Below, piece by piece: positions 10,970-23,721 of a stretch of DNA of 64,000 nucleotides. Position 1 is the first letter of the stretch. Each line of letters begins with the position of its first letter. The notes under the pieces are model-generated. The model did not search any database. It worked only from the letters and a program-made list of their open reading frames with translations, and was not told the origin of the DNA. A program made the translations under genes and the position numbers. The DNA is from Planctomycetota bacterium (GTDB lineage: Bacteria; Planctomycetota; PLA2; JAEUHO01): positions 128,001 to 192,000 of the forward strand of contig CBDCTJ010000003.1 in the NCBI GenBank assembly GCA_965222115.1, written 5' to 3'.

Positions 10970-13900
10970 CTACGGCGCCCCAGCAAACAGGAACGGCGCC
11001 CAGTAGTACGGATCGGGATGGGTCTTCATGAGCTCTTTGCGTGCCGCGTGAAGCGCCTCACAGGGAGACAGGGTATCGCCTTCAAACATACGTCGGTATA
11101 GCGAAGTCATGAGCTTGGCCGTGGATTTGTCGTCCACCGGCCACAAGCTCGCAATGCACGACCGAGCACCGGCGAAACAAAAGCCCCAAGGCAGCGCCAG
11201 CATGCCCTCGTTTTGATCGAGCTTGCCAGCGTGACTCTCGCACGCAGAAAGCACTACCAACTCAGTGCCTTCCAAGCGCGAACGCCAACGTTCAAGCAGA
11301 TCACCCAAACTCAAAAACCCGTCGTTGTCGGAGACAGGTACGCGCGGTGTAGTAAGTGCCAAGCGGGAGGCGCGCGCCCCTTGGTCCGGCTCAATGATGC
11401 CGTGAGTAGCGAGGTGCAGGATGCGCGGGGAATCCGACGCCTTGAATAGCGCCGCTTCGGTTGCCTGCTCGCGCAATAGTGTGCGGACTGACACCCTCTT
11501 TCCCGACGCCTCAAGCAACTTCTCTAGTGCGCGGACCTCGTCACCCGTTCCGGGAATGCGAGCCAGACTGCCGCCGCGAAGCACGCCCGGGGTCACCCGC
11601 GCAAGAACCTTGGGGCCCGCAATCGGAGGCGGCTCCTTGGCGAGAAAGACACCGATGCGTCCGGGCTCCAGGGTAGCGGTTCGAGTGGTGCCTTCGCGTT
11701 CGTAAGTGAGAGGAATCTCTTTGGTTTCTGGCTTAATGCCGCGAATCGCTTTGACCAAGTCTTCGTGAGTGGCCGTCCGCATGCGGCCATAGGCAGTAAT
11801 CACGTCTCCGGGTCGAAGCTTCAACTTGGCAGCCTGCGAGCCCGGTGAGATGTCGTTGACAACGATTCCTTCTTTGGGCCAACGCACTGCCCCATCGAAC
11901 ACCGGGTCTCCCACGGCCACAACCGACAAGTTCCCGGTAGCCTTCGGACGTGCCTTCAACGCGGAAAGTACCGCAGCCGATGCCGCATAGGCGATCGGTG
12001 GACCCTCCTGCGCCCAATAGCCCGGCTTATCGCCATCGTTTGAAACAACCAGTGCCTCAAACGGCAGCTGATGAAGTATGCCATGGGGAAGCACGTACAC
12101 GCGCGATGCGCTCTTTACATCATTCCAGACCGCTTCGGGGAGCAGCATCTTGAACAACGTCGTGCCAGGATGCTTCGCTGCGTCTGACCGTGTTGCACCC
12201 TTTGCCGCAAGGACTTTGCGATACGCGTGAACCGCGCTAGCGATCGCCATGGAAGTGATCGGCGCCTCTTCCGTGCCAAGGCGATGAGCGACAATGCCGT
12301 CTCTTGAAACCACGAACACAAACGAGTGTTCTCCCAGGCTATAGGCCAGCATGCGTTCCTTATCTTGGAGCAATGCACGCATCTGTTCAGCCTTCAGTGG
12401 CCGTCCCTCCGGCAAGGCCTGGCGGATCAAAGACAACCGTGTTCGCAGCGCCTTTTCGTAGGTGGCACGCGTATCGATTTCGACCTTCCTAAGCGCTTGT
12501 ATTTCCTTTCGACGTCCGGCTTGCTGCGCCCGTGCTACATCGGACGACGCGACAGTCACTGCCGAGAATGCGTCATCCACCTCTCGAGCGGCTTTCTCGA
12601 TGCGCGCCACCAATGAAGTGTCGCCTCGTTTAGAAGCTTGACGCTTCGCGACCTGGACAGGATCGTCCTGACCTCGCTGCAAGAGGTCCAGCATCTCCCG
12701 ACCCCGACTGCGCTCCAGCGTCTCAACCGCTTGCTCTGCATGCCCCAGCATCAAATGCGCTCGAATCATGAGCGGAAACGGATCCCACCGTCGCAGTGAG
12801 GCCAGATATCGCACGCGCCCCTCGCTTCCCAGTTCGGCTGCTTCGGATCGTCGCACTTCCAACTGCGCGGCTGCGGGGCCAAGGGCCTGTTGTGCCTGAG
12901 CAATGTTTCCCTCCTATAGGTATAGGTCGCTCAAAAACACGTGGGCGATGTAACAATTGGGCCAGTGGATTCGTTTGCCGATTCGTACCGCCTCCATGGC
13001 AGTTCTCTTGGCTTCGCTCCTTCGCCCCAAATCGGCAAACGAGACCGCTAGGTTGTGAAAGCTCACAGCCACATCCGTGTGCTCTCCTGAAAACAAGCGC
13101 TTTCTCATTTCTAGCGCCTCTTTGTAGTAGGAATGCGCTTCGTTTGCCTTGCCAAGGCCCTGAAGTACAGCGCCCAAGTTGTTTAGGCTCAAAGCCACAT
13201 CGGGATGGTCTCCTGATAACAGGCGCCTTCGCATCTTTAGCGCTCTCTCGCAGTAGGAAAATGCCTCGTTGGCTCTACCAAGACTATCGAGTACACAACC
13301 CAAGTTACTCAGGCTCACAGCCACGTCCGGGTGGTCCCCTGAAATTACGCGCATTTGCATCGCTAATCCCTGCTCGTAGTAGGGAAGCGCCTCGTTGGCT
13401 CTACCAAGACTGTCGAGTACATAACCCAGATTGTTCAGGTTCATGGCCACCTCGGGATGGTCCCCGGAATACACGCGCTTCCGCATCGCTAGCGCCTTCT
13501 CGTAGTAGGGAAGCGCCTCGTTGGCTTTGCCGAGATCTTGAAGTACACCGGCCATGTTGTTCAAGCTCGTGGCCATTTCGAGATGGTTACCTGAAGACAA
13601 GCGCCTTCGCATCTTTAGCGCTTTCTCGTAGTAGGAAAACGCCTCGTTGACTTTGCCAAGGCTGTTCAACACAGCGGCCAAGTTGTTTAGGCTCATGGCA
13701 ACATCGGGATGGTCCTTTGAGAACAAGCGCTTTCGCATTGCTAACGCTTCCTCGCAGAAGGGAAGCGCCTCATTGGCCTTGCCAAGGCTATTCAGTACAA
13801 GACCCAAGTTGTTCAAGCTCGTAGCCACACTCGGATGGTCCCCTGAATACAAGCGCTTACGCATCGCTAGTGCTTGCTCGTAGTAGGAAAGCGCCTCGTT

Positions 13901-14968
13901 TGTCTTGCCAAGGTCTTGAAGTACAGTGCCCAAGTTATTTAGGCATGTGGCCACACTCGAATGGTCCTCTGAATATAAGCGCTTAAACATCGCTAACGCT
14001 CTCTCGTAGTAGGAAAGCGCCTCGTTGGCTTTGCCGAGATCTTGAAGTACACCGGCCATGTTGTTCAAGCTCGTGGCCACGCCGGAGTGATTTCCCGAAA
14101 ACAGACGCATTCGCATCTTTAGTGCTTTCTCGTAGCAGGAAAGTGCCTCATCGGGCTTGCTAAGCCTTAGAAGCGCGCCAGCCAAGTTGTTCAAACTCAA
14201 AGCCACCTTCGGGTGATCCCCTGAATACAAGCGCCTTCTCATTTCTAGCGCCTCTTTGTAGTAGGAACGCGCCTCGTTTGCCTTGCCAAGGCTTAGAAGT
14301 ACATAGCCCAAGTTGTTTAGGCTCAAAGCCACATCCGGATGGTCTCCTGAAAACAAGCGCTTATACATCTCGTGCGCTCTTTTGTAATAGGAAAGCGCAT
14401 CGTCGGCCCTTCCAAGGCCGTCCAAAACAGATGCCAAGTTGTTTAGGCTCGTAGCCACAGCGGGGTGGTCCCTTGAGAACAAGCGCATTCTCATCTCTAG
14501 TGCTTGCTCGTGGTAGGGAAGCGCCTCGCCAGCTTTGCCAAGACTCTCGTAGGCGACGGCCAAGTTGTTTAGGCTCATTGCCACAGCCGGATGCTCTCCT
14601 GGAAATAAGCGCCCATGCATCTCGAGCGCTTCTTTGTAGTAAGGAAGCGCCTCACTGGCTTTGTCACTATCTTTAAGTGCACCGGCCAATTTATCTAGGC
14701 AGATTGCAAGCTCTTTATGGTCCTTCTTACGTGCGCGAAGCAACTGAATCGCCGCCTTGTAGTCCCTGATCGCCTCTTCGTGTCGGCGGGCCTCTCTATG
14801 CGCATCCCCTTGCTCGCGAAGTTTCCGAGCCTTTACAACCTCCGAGTCCTCGGCACCATCGGCCTCCGCTTTCGGCTCCTCGGTTTTCGGTGCGTCCTCG
14901 GCCGCGATCGACCCACTTCCCAACACCAATAGTGCAACCAACAACGCGCGTGAAAAAGCCAACTTCAT
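10970..14968 (-). pseudogene. Signal-peptide TPR-CHAT (caspase-like) protein with a PDZ insert, interrupted by one in-frame TAG at 12914-12916
   Basis: ORFs 12914..15058 (about 14 x 42-aa SLNNL TPRs) and 10970..12862 (CHAT: LPFEAL, HLATHG, LSACES, ASLWPVDD, PYYWAPF) are in frame: ...DLYL*EGNIAQAQQ... Signal MKLAFSRALLVALLVLG at 14968. Confidence 0.8.
13000..14710 (-). repeat. 126-bp tandem repeat array encoding 42-aa TPR units
   Basis: Recurring AxSLNNL...ALxxxxRLxSGDHP; a 65-bp block is identical at 13511-13575 and 14015-14079 (offset 504 = 4 x 126). Confidence 0.9.
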
Positions 14969-15198
14969 GGAGCCACCTCCCGCCGCAGTGTCTGCGCGGC
15001 AGCCATTGGCGTCAAGAAAACTGGGAAACGGCGCGAGGACGAGTAACTCACACTTCATGCTTAGCTCGAGACTCGCTCTCCCTCCCCAAACTTGAATCGT
15101 TGATTGGCTGCTCGATACGCTCTGTAGTGAGAGATGGAACTATTCGCTGCGAGGCTGAGTTCCGCGAATCTGAGGCGGCAGCCAACGGCATGTGTTCT

Positions 15199-18054: not shown

Positions 18055-19023
18055 TTACTCGCGCGCCAACACTTCTATGATCATCCACCCGCGTTTGAAA
18101 TCGAGCAGCTCAGGATGCACGTGACCCACGGGCGTTCGTTCGTCGAGGATCCACTTCAACAAATCGCTTCCGATGTCTCGTGTGCCCCAGTGAATCCACT
18201 CCGTGCGTTCGCGGGTCTTGGGATGGCGAACCTCTAGAACGCCGCCTCGTGCGCGCGTGGCGGCGTCGAAGCAGTACTGCCGCGCCATTTCGTCAAATTC
18301 TGCTTCTTCTTTGAGGATTTTGTTGAGTACGCCCTGTGCCGTACTTCGAGCCACATCACGCGTGATATGACGCTTCTTCTCCTGCGCAGGCCAGCTTCCT
18401 CGATAGGCGAACGTAATCACGCGCACTTTGGCCCGCCGCCGTGCTTCGCGCCTTTGAAGGGCGAGCAATTCAAATCCGCGCTTGCGGTCGATGCGTTTCG
18501 CGAAGCCGAATCCACCGTTCCACTCGATCACGGGCGTCATACCCCAAACCGGCGTGGCTATGTAGACACGATCGCGACGCGTGATTGACTTGGGATCGAG
18601 CGGCGCAAATGTAAATCCCAATGCGCGCGCCCCCACGCCGTTGCTTGCCTCGCGCGCAACACTGCCGATATCCTCGCCGCGATAGACGCGCTTGCAGAGA
18701 TTGCGAACTCGTGCCAGTGCTTCATTGCGTGAACGGGGATAGCGGTTGGGAAGATGTTTGACGTCGTCCTCGAGATAGCTCACCCACACTTCTTGTGCGA
18801 AAAATGGATCACGAACGGGGCCGTTGACGTTGGGTGGCTCGATGTCACTTACAGCACACGTCTTGTTCAAGGCAGCGTCATCGGGCGTGGCACCTGTCGG
18901 TTGTCTCGACGCAGAAGACGAGCCGTTGGACGTCGAATCGCTTGAACGTGAAATCGCCCACGCGGTCGCACCGGCAGCCACCAGCAAAACGACCGCAAGA
19001 CTGATCCACTGTTGACGCGTCAT
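18055..19023 (-). CDS. Membrane-anchored divergent parvulin/PpiC-like peptidyl-prolyl isomerase
   Basis: N-terminal TM; RSRNEALARV...GEDIGSVAREAS and EFDEMARQY...ATRARGG.L...RGWMII match parvulin patterns twice. Confidence 0.55.
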   Translation of the reverse strand: MTRQQWISLAVVLLVAAGATAWAISRSSDSTSNGSSSASRQPTGATPDDAALNKTCAVSDIEPPNVNGPVRDPFFAQEVWVSYLEDDVKHLPNRYPRSRNEALARVRNLCKRVYRGEDIGSVAREASNGVGARALGFTFAPLDPKSITRRDRVYIATPVWGMTPVIEWNGGFGFAKRIDRKRGFELLALQRREARRRAKVRVITFAYRGSWPAQEKKRHITRDVARSTAQGVLNKILKEEAEFDEMARQYCFDAATRARGGVLEVRHPKTRERTEWIHWGTRDIGSDLLKWILDERTPVGHVHPELLDFKRGWMIIEVLARE

Positions 19024-19035
19024 GGATGAATCAGT

Positions 19036-20976
19036 CTAGTCCGCCTTGGAGGATGTGTGCGTGGCCATGAATGCGGCGAGTGTGCGTGCAAACTCGGTAG
19101 GTTTGGGAAGCGGGGCTCCTTCGGCTAGGAGCGCTTGGCCATATACTAGTTCGGCATAGTCTTCAAACGACACGGCGTCGCGTTCGGTGGGGCTAGCTTC
19201 AGCAAGCGCAACGAGGCGTTCTACCACCGCGTGGTCCTTGTTCAGTTCCAAGGCGCGCGGTGGCTCGGGCATATCCTCGTTCATCTGACGCATCATGCGC
19301 AGCATGGCGGGACTCATGGCACCTTCGGGCGCAACCAACACAGCAGGGCTATCCGTGAGCCGCTTTGAAAAACGCACGTTGGAGACGCGTTCGCCAAAAT
19401 GTTCTTTGATGGCCTCGAGTGCATCTTTGTGTTCGCTCTCGGTCTCCGCCTCTTCCTTCTTCGCGTCGTCGTCTTTGTCTTCAAAGTCGAGATCGCCTTG
19501 GCTCGCAGGCTGAAGTTCCTTGTCGGCGAACTTGGTAAGGCGAGACACCATCCACTCGTCGATGGGATCTGAGAGTAACAATACGTCATAGCCCTTGGCG
19601 CGAAACGCTTCCAAGTGTGGGCTCGCGGCAAGCGTCTCCTTTTGCCCGCCCGTTACGTAGTAGATCTTGTCCTGATCTTCGGGCATGGCGTCTACGTATT
19701 GCCGCAAGGTGAGACGACCGGGCGCATCGGCAGTGTCAAACACGCACAGGTTCGAGATACGCTCATCATCGTCGGCGCCGTAGTAGATCCCCTCTTTCAA
19801 CATGGCGCCCATGCTCTGGAAAAATGTCTCGTAGGCTTCGCGATCCTCGTCCAAGAACTTCGCCAGCTCTTTGAGCACCTGCGACACGAGGTGTTTACGA
19901 ATGCGCTGCGTCACAGGATTGGCTTGAAGTGTCTGACGAGACACATTGAGCGGCAAGTCACTTGACTCTACCACGCCGCGCACAAAGCGCAGCCACCCCG
20001 GCAACAGGTCCTCACATTCGTCCATGATGAGCACCCGGCGCACGTACAACGACACGCGCGACTTGCTTTGGTTGGGATCCAGAAACATGGGATTCAACGA
20101 TTCGGGGACGAACAACAGGGCCTGAAATTCGACCGGCACCTCGGCGCGAATGTGAATCACACGCGCCGGCGCCTGCCAGTCGCGCGACATATGCTTGTAG
20201 AGCGAGGCGTATTCCTCGTCCTTCACCTCCGATGGCGAACGCGCCCACAGAGGCTTCTGCGAGTTGAGGGTCTTGTCGACCATCACTTGCTTCCGATCGT
20301 CGCCCTCGCCTTCCCACTCCTCCATCTTCATGCGAATAGGATGTTCCACGAAGTCGGAGTGACGTCGAACGGTTGCTTGAATCACATAGGGGTCGGCAAA
20401 ATCTTGCCACGTTTCGTCGTCGTCGCCCTTGGCTGCAAGGTGCAGTGTCACGCGCGTTCCACGTTCCTTGCGATCGATGTCTTCGAGCGTGTACTCCCCT
20501 TTGCCGGTCGAGGTCCAACGAACACCTTGCTTCTCGCCCGCACGTAGACTCTCGACGACGACCTTGTCGGCCACCATGAAACTCGAATAGAAGCCCACAC
20601 CAAACTGACCAATCAGGGCTGCCGCGTCGCTTTGCTTGTCCTTCTTGAGTTGGTCGATAAACGCCTTGGTACCTGACTTCGCGATCGTGCCGAGGTGCGA
20701 CGCCACTTCATCACGACTCATGCCAATGCCGTTGTCGATCACCGAAAGCGTCTGCGCTTCAGGATCGGCTTCGATGCGAATTGACAGCTCTTCGCCTTCG
20801 GCAAGAAGCGACGTGTCCTTCAATGCCGCCATGCGGAGTTTGTCCAGTGCATCGCTCGCATTGGACAGAAGCTCACGGAGGAAAATTTCTCGCTCGGTGT
20901 AGAGCGAGTGAATCATGAGCCCGAGAAGTTCTTGGGTCTCAGCCTCAAATGCGCGTGTCTCAACGGCCGTCGTCAT
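19036..20976 (-). CDS. htpG: Hsp90 chaperone HtpG
   Basis: FLRELLSNASDALDK, DNGIGM, LGTIAKSGT, IGQFGVGFYS, DLPLNVSR. Confidence 0.97.
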   Translation of the reverse strand: MTTAVETRAFEAETQELLGLMIHSLYTEREIFLRELLSNASDALDKLRMAALKDTSLLAEGEELSIRIEADPEAQTLSVIDNGIGMSRDEVASHLGTIAKSGTKAFIDQLKKDKQSDAAALIGQFGVGFYSSFMVADKVVVESLRAGEKQGVRWTSTGKGEYTLEDIDRKERGTRVTLHLAAKGDDDETWQDFADPYVIQATVRRHSDFVEHPIRMKMEEWEGEGDDRKQVMVDKTLNSQKPLWARSPSEVKDEEYASLYKHMSRDWQAPARVIHIRAEVPVEFQALLFVPESLNPMFLDPNQSKSRVSLYVRRVLIMDECEDLLPGWLRFVRGVVESSDLPLNVSRQTLQANPVTQRIRKHLVSQVLKELAKFLDEDREAYETFFQSMGAMLKEGIYYGADDDERISNLCVFDTADAPGRLTLRQYVDAMPEDQDKIYYVTGGQKETLAASPHLEAFRAKGYDVLLLSDPIDEWMVSRLTKFADKELQPASQGDLDFEDKDDDAKKEEAETESEHKDALEAIKEHFGERVSNVRFSKRLTDSPAVLVAPEGAMSPAMLRMMRQMNEDMPEPPRALELNKDHAVVERLVALAEASPTERDAVSFEDYAELVYGQALLAEGAPLPKPTEFARTLAAFMATHTSSKAD

Positions 20977-21084
20977 GGTCAAACTCCCGCATCGCCCGGA
21001 CAGCTAGCCCGGCGCGATCTCAATTTCGCCATCGATAGCCGCGACAGTTTATCGAGCCTTGGGCCTGTCGGAAGTCGGCGATGG

Positions 21085-21609
21085 TTAGTTCTCGTCTTCG
21101 GACTCTTCGTCGTCTTCGGCAGCTGCCTCCTCGGACTGTCTTTCTCGGAGGTCGGCCATCGACGGTGCCTCGTGACCTTCCAAGAGGGCATCCAAATCGG
21201 AGACGATTTCCTCACGCCCGTAGTGGTGCCCGCCGCGAATCGCCACGACATCGCCCGCGTCATTCATGACCACCATGCCGTGCAACGTGGGTCCAAACGG
21301 ATACTTCGCCGCGCGCTTCTTGCCCGTTTCGTTCCACCAGGCGTACCAGTTGTAGTCGAAACGGGCTATGTACTTCGGCTCATCGCAGATGGTGCGCAAC
21401 GTATCCGCTACGCGTTTGCACTTGCCTCAGGCCTCGCTGATTTGGAAGTACTCCACCCGAAACATGCTCGGCTCATCTTGGGGCTGCGATTCCGTTGCTG
21501 ACGAGGACTTCGCGGCCGTGTCCGACGGAGCCGGCGACGTGTCGCCGCAGCCTGCAATCAGTAGGAGCAACGTCGCCGAAAACGAAACGAGAAATCGATG
21601 GATGCGCAT
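21085..21609 (-). CDS. Putative selenocysteine-containing thioredoxin-like lipoprotein (UxxC), 174 aa
   Basis: ORFs 21427..21609 and 21085..21399 join in frame through TGA 21427-21429: YFQISEA-U-GKC-KRVADTL. Lipobox LIAGC; SECIS-like hairpin immediately 3'. Confidence 0.75.
21392..21421 (-). promoter_or_regulatory. Candidate bacterial SECIS element
   Basis: GTGCAAACGCGTA-GCGGA-TACGTTGCGCAC stem-loop; the G-initial apical loop starts 18 nt after the UGA. Confidence 0.6.
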
Positions 21610-21664: not shown

Positions 21665-23095
21665 ATGACGTCCCCCACATCCACCTTCGACCTCAACGCC
21701 GCACTCACATTCTCGGATTCCCTTTGGGAGTCGGACATCGTCCCGACCATCGCCGAGTACATCAAAATCCCAAACAAGTCACCGCTATTTGATCCGGACT
21801 GGTCGGCAAACGGTCATATGGATCGCGCCACCGACATGATCGCGGACTGGTGTCGAGGGCGCCCCATCGACGGGCTGACGGTTGAGATCGTGCGTCTTGA
21901 GGGTCGCACACCGCTGATCTACATGGAAATTCCGGGATCGAGCGACGACACGGTGCTGCTCTACGGCCACCTCGACAAGCAACCCGAGATGACCGGTTGG
22001 CGCGAGGGCCTAAGCCCGTGGAAGCCGGTTCGCGAAGGTGACAAGCTCTACGGGCGCGGCGGCGCCGACGATGGCTACGCGGCATTCGCCTCGCTCACCG
22101 CGATTGAAGCCGTGCGCAAATTCGGCGGCACGCACGCACGCTGCGTTGTGTTGATCGAAGCATGTGAAGAGAGTGGCAGCCCGGATCTACCCCATTACAT
22201 CGAGCACTTGAAGGATCGCATCGGCACGCCGAGTCTCGTCGTGTGCCTTGATTCGGGGTGCGGCAACTACGATCAACTGTGGTGCACGACGTCGTTGCGC
22301 GGCATTGTGGTGGGCACACTGCGAGTCGACATTCTTACCGAGGGCGTTCACTCCGGAAACGCAGGTGGTATCGCGCCGTCAAGCTTCCGCATTGCACGCA
22401 TGCTGCTCTCCCGATTGGAGAACGTGGATACCGGCGAGATCACGGCGGATGCGTTCATCGATCCGATTCCTGCAGCGCGAGTCGAGCAAGCCAAGCAGGC
22501 CGCGCGCGTGCTGGGTGATCAAGTAGTGAGGAGTTTTCCATTCGTCGATGGCGCGGGGCGAAATGACCGCAAGCTACACGAACTCATCCTGGATCGCACG
22601 TGGCGTTCCTCATTGTCAGTCACGGGCAGTGACGGACTCCCAGCCCTCGAACATGCGGGCAATGTGTTGCGACCATTTACGTCGCTGCAACTTTCATTGC
22701 GTGTGCCCCCTACGCGCGATGCAGGGGCCGCCGCAGAGGCGCTAAAAACGCTTCTGGAAGCCGATCCACCGTATGGCGCCAACGTGTCATTCACAATTCG
22801 TACGCCGGGCAGTGGTTGGGAGGCACCTGCGGTGGCGCCGTGGCTCGAAGCGTCTCTTGAACGTGTTTCGCAGGGGACATTTGGCAAGAGCGCCATGTAC
22901 ATGGGCGAAGGCGGATCGATTCCTTTCATGGGCATGCTCGGCGAAGCGTTTCCTGAGGCACAGTTCCTCATTACGGGTGTACTTGGCCCCCACTCCAACG
23001 CCCACGGTCCCAACGAGTTCCTTCACATTCCAACCGGCAAGAAACTGACTGCCGCGATTGCAGGCGTCCTCGACGATCACGCCTGTCGCAAGTGA
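21665..23095 (+). CDS. M20 family metallopeptidase (ArgE/DapE/dipeptidase-like)
   Basis: YGHLDKQP, YGRGGADDG, EACEESGS, NAHGPNE. Confidence 0.93.
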   Translation: MTSPTSTFDLNAALTFSDSLWESDIVPTIAEYIKIPNKSPLFDPDWSANGHMDRATDMIADWCRGRPIDGLTVEIVRLEGRTPLIYMEIPGSSDDTVLLYGHLDKQPEMTGWREGLSPWKPVREGDKLYGRGGADDGYAAFASLTAIEAVRKFGGTHARCVVLIEACEESGSPDLPHYIEHLKDRIGTPSLVVCLDSGCGNYDQLWCTTSLRGIVVGTLRVDILTEGVHSGNAGGIAPSSFRIARMLLSRLENVDTGEITADAFIDPIPAARVEQAKQAARVLGDQVVRSFPFVDGAGRNDRKLHELILDRTWRSSLSVTGSDGLPALEHAGNVLRPFTSLQLSLRVPPTRDAGAAAEALKTLLEADPPYGANVSFTIRTPGSGWEAPAVAPWLEASLERVSQGTFGKSAMYMGEGGSIPFMGMLGEAFPEAQFLITGVLGPHSNAHGPNEFLHIPTGKKLTAAIAGVLDDHACRK

Positions 23096-23721
23096 CTATG
23101 CGACTTGTGTTGATCAGTGACACGCATACGCGCCACCGCGAGCTGGAGCTCCCGGATGGTGATGTGCTGATCCACGCCGGTGACTTTACCAACGCCGGCA
23201 CGGTGCCTGAAGTCAGCGACTTTGCACGCTGGATGCGGACTCGCCCTCACGCTCACAAAGTAGTGATCGCAGGCAACCACGATTTGCTGTTCGAGCGCAA
23301 TCCAATTGAAGCGCGGCGCCTCATGGCAGATCTTACCTATCTCGAAGATACATCGACCACCATCGACGGCATTCACTTCTACGGCTCACCGTGGCAACCG
23401 TGGTTCTACGATTGGGCCTTCAATGTCGAGCGCGGTCCAGCGATCCGTGAGAAATGGGACAAGATTCCAAGCGACGTAGATGTACTTATCACCCACGGCC
23501 CCCCATCCGGACACGGCGACGTCAATCGACACGGCGATGCCGTTGGGTGCGAAGACTTGCTCGCCGTCGTTCGGGAACGCCAACCAACGCTTCATGTGTA
23601 TGGTCACATCCACGAGGGCCGTGGCATCACGCACTGGAAATCAACGACGTTTATCAATGCGAGCTCGGTTATCGGCTACGACGGGCCATTGGCGGAGCCG
23701 GTTGTGTTTGCCGTTGATTGA
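23092..23721 (+). CDS. Calcineurin-like metallophosphoesterase (MPPED/239FB-like)
   Basis: SDTH, HAGDFT, AGNHD, THGPP, GHIHE; GTGA overlap with the upstream stop. Confidence 0.92.
   Translation: MTMRLVLISDTHTRHRELELPDGDVLIHAGDFTNAGTVPEVSDFARWMRTRPHAHKVVIAGNHDLLFERNPIEARRLMADLTYLEDTSTTIDGIHFYGSPWQPWFYDWAFNVERGPAIREKWDKIPSDVDVLITHGPPSGHGDVNRHGDAVGCEDLLAVVRERQPTLHVYGHIHEGRGITHWKSTTFINASSVIGYDGPLAEPVVFAVD

Follow-up and report, generated by a model that had tools for sequence, protein, structure and literature searches.

Two short open reading frames on the minus strand of this contig, separated in frame by one TGA, raise the question of whether they constitute a single selenoprotein gene and, if they do, what its product does. 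Within the window, i.e., the whole 64,000-nt stretch of DNA that was analyzed, translation with the TGA read as selenocysteine (U) yielded a single 174-aa frame (P0001) that starts with an ATG at 21609, ends with a TAA at 21087-21085 and carries U61-G-K-C64, which bears out the in-frame joining of the two ORFs proposed in an earlier note on this DNA. Translation table 11 splits the gene into a 60-aa ORF (21427-21609) and a 104-aa ORF (21085-21399); of the two halves, only the C-terminal one (104 aa) is present in the public protein collection, and it was also the sole match (1 of 107 candidates) in a single-sequence protein search. Contigs from two public runs (X1 and X2, which represent two samples from a single study and may be the data behind the assembly) cover the TGA with zero differing letters, which argues against a read error, one of the ways in which the earlier note had supposed its claim could fail. 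The lipobox described there is present (I18-A-G-C21), as is the acidic tail (residues 147-174), although the tail is not common to the homologues.

Coordinates of the gene, its features and its neighbors within the window.
Feature	Position	Strand	Basis
Whole gene, 174 aa with TGA as selenocysteine	21085..21609	-	translation; homologues
Predicted lipoprotein signal peptide, residues 1-21, lipobox I-A-G-C21	21547..21609	-	sequence; lipobox in family; lgt, lspA; cleavage and lipidation inferred
Ser/Pro/Ala/Thr-rich linker, residues 22-46	21472..21546	-	sequence; length differs between homologues
Thioredoxin-fold domain (predicted), residues 47-146	21172..21471	-	AlphaFold2, Foldseek, VIA-align
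In-frame TGA, codon 61, predicted selenocysteine, first position of UxxC	21427..21429	-	TGA 47/49, TGC 2/49
Cys64, second position of UxxC	21418..21420	-	49/49 genes
Candidate SECIS hairpin, 8-bp stem, GAUA loop at 21405-21402, 21 nt past UGA	21394..21413	-	folding; fits consensus model
His110-Gly111, at or next to thioredoxin cis-proline site	21277..21282	-	His 47/49, Gly 49/49
His128, after Gly ending last strand	21226..21228	-	49/49 genes; database relatives
Acidic C-terminal tail, residues 147-174, not conserved	21088..21171	-	sequence; absent from homologues aligned
Hsp90/HtpG, downstream	19036-20982	- (same strand)	neighbor ORF
M20 peptidase, divergent	21665-23095	+	neighbor ORF
Metallophosphoesterase	23092-23721	+	neighbor ORF
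Parvulin-type PPIase	18055-19023	-	neighbor ORF

Comparison of residue 61 across homologues, the check proposed in the earlier note, spoke for selenocysteine. P0001 matched 21 of 61 relatives, and in all 20 of the loci obtained TGA occupies the corresponding site within U-x-x-C, a conservation well above what chance would give. Profile searches placed the family in 22 of 40 genomes of the order (21 with TGA and one ArsF-like hit, L064 in G009, which was left out before counting) and in 41 of 401 genomes across the phylum. In 49 homologous genes read from DNA at 48 loci, codon 61 was TGA in 47 and TGC in 2, and U/C-x-x-C, including Cys64, was kept in all 49; TGA recurred in 15 of 15 further loci, two of which belong to genomes already counted, and is conserved across 62 distinct Sec genes. 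The two flanking ligands of the motif were always kept and the residues between them varied widely, U-P-F-C being a common form (35 of 62 Sec genes). None of the 66 matches in one database search contained the motif, because the proteins start just past it. An exhaustive protein search returned 187 hits, of which 150 were listed and 148 of these aligned; among these listed matches 119 were truncated just past the motif, in line with the splitting by standard gene callers that had been foreseen for the window gene, while 26 were full-length proteins with CxxC and 3 had WxxC. Rejection of P0188, an unrelated DsbA-like false hit, left 25 of the 26, so that about 25 Cys forms stand beside the two TGC genes.

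The WxxC proteins bear on the alternative that translation truly stops at the TGA, or that this codon is an error or encodes Trp or Gly, the locus then being a split or decayed gene. The earlier note would have counted Trp, Arg or Gly at this site against itself, and Trp does occur in these three database proteins; however, three metagenome loci fetched as relatives of one of them (76-84% identical) carry TGA at the site, and Trp in that one protein is therefore likely to be the gene caller's reading. It is the only one of the three for which the DNA of relatives was examined, the others being P0156 and P0194. Furthermore, many homologues also terminate at TGA, which is therefore not a general sense codon. 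The GC content of the three metagenome loci (45-47%) hints at a range beyond the phylum. In a quick tree built on 98 columns, with 33 of 72 forks open, the Sec forms are intermingled with the Cys forms (6 changes), a single origin being still conceivable, and the window gene sits on a long branch (1.7), a point on the side of decay.

The source genome (G000; 4.55 Mb, 90% complete) contains the Sec machinery whose absence would have spoken against the claim: selA (480.7 bits), selB (346.6), selD (150.6) and tRNA-Sec (selC, 71.6) were all found above their cut-offs. The selD copy (L019, G000:C1:654443-655201) contains its own in-frame TGA and carries several frameshifts close to a contig end, which lends something to the view that nothing is recoded here, as does G274 (84% complete), a TGA-bearing genome with no selA match. 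Because the 3' part of selA sits both at the end of contig C1 and at the start of C7 (L009, G000:C7:4-1329), these two contigs likely join. Co-occurrence with selA is weak evidence both within the order (21 of 21 family holders versus 38 of 40 background genomes) and outside it (26 of 27 holders versus 112 of 151), and both Cys-form genomes also carry selA; the matches in 112 of 151 sampled genomes do indicate that Sec use is widespread in the phylum. A hexamer scan of G000 passed 140 of 70,235 TGA junctions, among them the TGA of this gene and many other redox-type candidates. About 20 more TGA read-through candidates were noted in G000, most with a G-loop hairpin 17-24 nt past the TGA (e.g., C3:119967+, C7:2028148+, C7:2165412+, C7:2272806+, C7:221469-, C1:255468-, C1:31103+, C7:1777930+ and C3:297355+); from their motifs we take these to include TlpA-like, peroxiredoxin-like, AhpD-like, deiodinase-like and unknown exported proteins. 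Contig C6 of the same genome (48 kb) has 39.7% GC versus ~59% for most of the genome and may be foreign DNA or mis-binned.

A stem-loop with a GCGGA loop beginning 18 nt after the UGA had been described for the window gene, but this register is negligible (closing-pair probability 0.006), whereas in the structure that dominates an 8-bp stem carries a GAUA loop 21 nt past the UGA (closing-pair probability 0.99). At -11.7 kcal/mol the latter hairpin falls within the bacterial SECIS model given in the available text of PMC13188914 (G in the first two loop positions, 16-37 nt from the UGA, at or below -7.5 kcal/mol), although it is not significant alone: it was no better than chance against dinucleotide shuffles (z = -0.40) and reached p of about 0.09 against 150 synonymous-codon shuffles, which again gives the no-recoding alternative some footing. 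Its spacing resembles that of the G000 selD (GA-initial loop, 21 nt), and 16 of 24 other hand-picked G000 candidates have their loop at 20-24 nt. In the family, by contrast with the window gene, which is the exception in having lost the register, a common hairpin (loop mostly C/G-G-U) keeps the pairs 27-37, 28-36 and 29-35 in 61, 60 and 59 of 62 distinct Sec genes, with changes on both sides. Covariation in this hairpin was 0.372 versus 0.156 in shuffles (0 of 500) and no higher than 0.068 when slid, values to be read with the caveat that kin are not independent and that a small number of events account for the changes. The GU of the loop is supplied by Val at U+10, a residue found in 58 of 62 Sec genes versus 5 of 25 Cys proteins, which is the pattern to be anticipated if it is the RNA and not the protein that requires this Val; the covarying SECIS thus shapes the protein sequence of the family (Ala-Val at U+9/U+10), with the register shifted in the window gene. 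SelB would read the hairpin after the UGA. Because the TGA is conserved, Cys counterparts exist and the Sec machinery genes are present, recoding of codon 61 as selenocysteine is near certain; set against 62 distinct genes with TGA, homologues with Cys and identical letters in two runs, a stop, error or sense codon at this site is very improbable.

The product is predicted to be lipid-anchored outside the cytoplasm, as the earlier note had suggested. A match to the lipobox pattern was obtained for 44 of the 49 genes, a lipobox can be seen by eye in three of the remaining five, and G000 encodes lgt and lspA together with two DsbD matches. Clustering of 2631 ORFs from 48 loci gave only lineage-level synteny and no conserved neighborhood, the divergent M20 peptidase recurring beside homologues in G001 and G003 only. 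Pfam likewise revealed no functional or metal-transport theme among 101 neighboring ORFs (97 of 107 first neighbors plus 4 from the window, the 93 second neighbors lying outside the scan), of which 4, adjoining a few homologues, were AhpC/TSA, CMD or thioredoxin-like. No sigma-70-like promoter was found at the gene, one terminator-like site on the other strand was at chance level, and no RNA holder was listed. Elsewhere in the window (10970-15058, minus strand) a TPR-rich ORF ends 52 bases before a CHAT-like ORF, which we take to encode a CHAT-domain protease; the two may be one frameshift-split gene.

The thioredoxin fold assumed in the earlier note was corroborated by structure prediction. 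An AlphaFold2 model of residues 47-146 (pLDDT 95.4, pTM 0.86) shows a four-stranded sheet and three helices with the motif starting helix 1, as in the thioredoxin fold. Foldseek gave a TM score of 0.80 to T. thermophilus thioredoxin 1v98, VIA-align gave Z 13.1 to 7q3j (rmsd 1.7, 88 aligned) with thioredoxin matches at Z 11-13, and the top structural matches were thioredoxins without exception. In profile comparison by hhalign, canonical thioredoxins of the same order were matched at a probability of 97% (E about 1e-10), and an Atlas search with a Cys homologue, based on features only, returned unnamed clusters (0.92-0.93) followed by thioredoxin clusters (0.90-0.91).

The active site nevertheless differs from that of thioredoxin, with which, and with its Sec UxxC form, the family otherwise shares fold, domain length and motif position (TIGR01068, PF00085; Table 1 of PMC13188914, as available): it has no WCGPC and no cis-proline, it has two conserved His and a lipoprotein signal, and the thioredoxins form a separate long branch in the tree. 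Among the 49 genes His110 was kept in 47 and Gly111 and His128 in all, and Pro occurred at position 110 or 111 in none. Among the matches listed, His110 was found in 118 of 119 fragments and 26 of 29 full-length proteins, and His128 in 118 of 119 and 23 of 29; both persist at about 20-25% identity and in Cys forms, and some members are without one of the two. In the model His110 lies directly before the third strand, its register being uncertain by one residue: strand scoring puts His110 on the cis-proline (4.74 versus 2.13; the redoxin half of this test, with one false sequence in it, was left out), whereas hhalign puts Gly111 there and His110 one residue before. His128 follows a Gly that we take to match the Gly ending the last strand of thioredoxin, in a loop that presumably lines the substrate groove. 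Thus, His110 and His128 likely line the predicted active site beside the Sec/Cys pair, with an orientation taken from thioredoxin topology. Two variants within the family were also noted: locus L092 (G206:C10:162200-173800) holds two paralogues 3 kb apart, one with Ser for the first His, and a Cys-only subgroup (L082 in G249, P0111, P0118, P0134, P0136, P0144, P0148 and P0086) has an insertion of ~10-20 residues past the first helix and, in most members, a G-H-H motif. The window gene itself has no paralogue in G000, and no plasmid match was found for it.

These residues make the label of thiol-disulfide oxidoreductase, given in the earlier note, difficult to sustain. An ordinary exported enzyme of thioredoxin or TlpA type, acting on protein disulfides and with the His only shaping the substrate groove, would agree with the profile, structural and Atlas matches. 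It is, however, doubtful because cis-proline is lacking and His110 and His128 are conserved: according to the available text of PMC2757866, cis-proline is more conserved than CxxC in thioredoxin-fold enzymes, yet its site is without Pro in 49 of 49 genes. G000 already has, in addition, a canonical thioredoxin and several TlpA-like Sec candidates, and we regard this role as improbable.

Two histidines and two chalcogens are a classic four-ligand metal set, and a Pro75His thioredoxin, studied by Su et al. in 2007, reportedly bound more copper. Cis-proline may prevent metal binding (PMC2757866, available text), mutation of cis-proline in human TRX1 introduces an Fe-S cluster (PMC8161271, available text), and Sco owes its copper binding to an extra His (PMC6696091, available text). 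It is from these three observations that we tentatively favor a 174-residue lipid-anchored selenoprotein in which Sec61, Cys64, His110 and His128 would form a soft-metal site rather than serve protein disulfide exchange. The four residues would converge on one metal, for which copper would be the first guess, as the CxxxC and His of Sco do; the protein would bind the metal and possibly reduce it or hand it on, and DsbD would keep the Sec/Cys pair reduced. In favor of such a site are the constant retention of both motif ligands and the survival of His110 and His128 through deep divergence and in Cys forms. Against it, G000 (90% complete) has no Sco or COX2 match, the distribution of the family across the order does not follow that of Sco (both in 9 genomes, family only in 12, Sco only in 10, neither in 9), and the strong preference for Sec together with the common U-P-F-C would fit a redox catalyst equally well.

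Such a catalyst could be a metal-free, His-assisted selenoenzyme, in which Sec61 would attack a periplasmic peroxide, sulfenic acid or small oxidized substrate, Cys64 would resolve the product to a selenenylsulfide that DsbD re-reduces, and the His would act as acid/base or hydrogen-bond donors like the Arg of peroxiredoxins. In peroxiredoxins Arg takes the place of cis-proline and tunes the catalytic Cys (PMC2757866, available text), and UxxC occupies the canonical nucleophile position of the thioredoxin fold; the two DsbD matches, the many other redox-type TGA candidates in G000 and the AhpC/TSA, CMD or thioredoxin-like ORFs beside a few homologues point the same way. On the other hand, the same source gives T/S-x-x-C as the usual peroxiredoxin motif, whereas this family always keeps both ligands, and the pairing of two His with two chalcogens looks like a metal set. 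We consider this a possible explanation, held at about a one-in-three level of belief. As for the soft-metal site, its extension to the founding member of a family of extracytoplasmic thioredoxin-fold metallochaperones or metal reductases, with Sec as a ligand and arising independently of Sco via a His at the site of the metal-excluding cis-proline, is somewhat unlikely.

Several known families were compared in turn. Sco/SenC (PF02630) likewise has a membrane-anchored extracytoplasmic thioredoxin fold with a pair of chalcogen ligands and a His close to where the third strand begins (PMC6696091, available text), and is possibly a functional analogue. Its motif is CxxxC rather than UxxC, it carries a large insertion, and its single His lies two residues earlier as judged by the D-x-x-G turn; membership was rejected since CxxxC and the loop insertion are absent, the profile probability was 1-9% and the two do not co-occur. 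ArsF (NF040494) shares a thioredoxin-like domain, Y-[FY] before CxxC and the lack of Pro in the cis-proline loop, but it has neither His, a different C-terminal half and a separate long branch in the tree. It too was rejected (best member E 0.016, below the 60-bit cut-off; profile probability 9-74% by mode), and G000 had no ArsF match at E 1e-8. TsoX (NF045809), SaoT (NF040730) and HUIPC (NF047660) are also small thioredoxin-like UxxC selenoproteins, and for SaoT a shift towards interaction with metals has been suggested (bioRxiv 10.1101/2022.07.06.499078, available text). Of 20 members, 4, 4 and 1 matched these models, respectively, and only weakly (best E 7e-4, 2e-3 and 0.17); the signature motifs of the three families are absent, and these families sit in conserved operons, whereas the present gene stands alone. 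A TsoX search of the genomes gave no match anywhere, controls included, and is therefore uninformative.

The earlier note had not recognized the family, and no curated Pfam or NCBIfam model covers it. Even at E up to 10, Pfam returned nothing for P0001, and NCBIfam gave a single row attributable to chance; in NCBIfam, 20 Sec members gave a best E of 8e-5 with none near a cut-off, and 26 full-length homologues gave three weak rows far below cut-off. Since the best family-model E among members was 1e-4, and a Cys homologue reached 3.5e-6 to Glutaredoxin, automatic annotation may label individual members as thioredoxin-like. New selenoproteins of the UxxC thioredoxin-like type turn up often. The His signature is absent from Table 1 of PMC13188914 (2026, 119 families; available portion), whose entries for thioredoxin and glutaredoxin are broad enough that individual members could fall under them. 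No description of the family was found in the literature searched, outside of which lay BSepDB, Haft and Tolstoy 2025, bioRxiv supplements and groundwater candidates, where the family could be included. This UxxC thioredoxin-fold selenoprotein family with a remodeled, His-lined active site is thus apparently undescribed.

The family adds to the known selenoproteins one that gene callers almost always cut. Its remodeled active site is a natural test of whether cis-proline keeps metals off thioredoxin thiolates, and it bears on what favors Sec at metal sites. At ~100 residues the domain is small, and its natural Cys forms can be expressed without recoding; if Sec61 is indeed a ligand in a metal site, these natural Cys versions would allow a direct comparison of selenium and sulfur at such a site.
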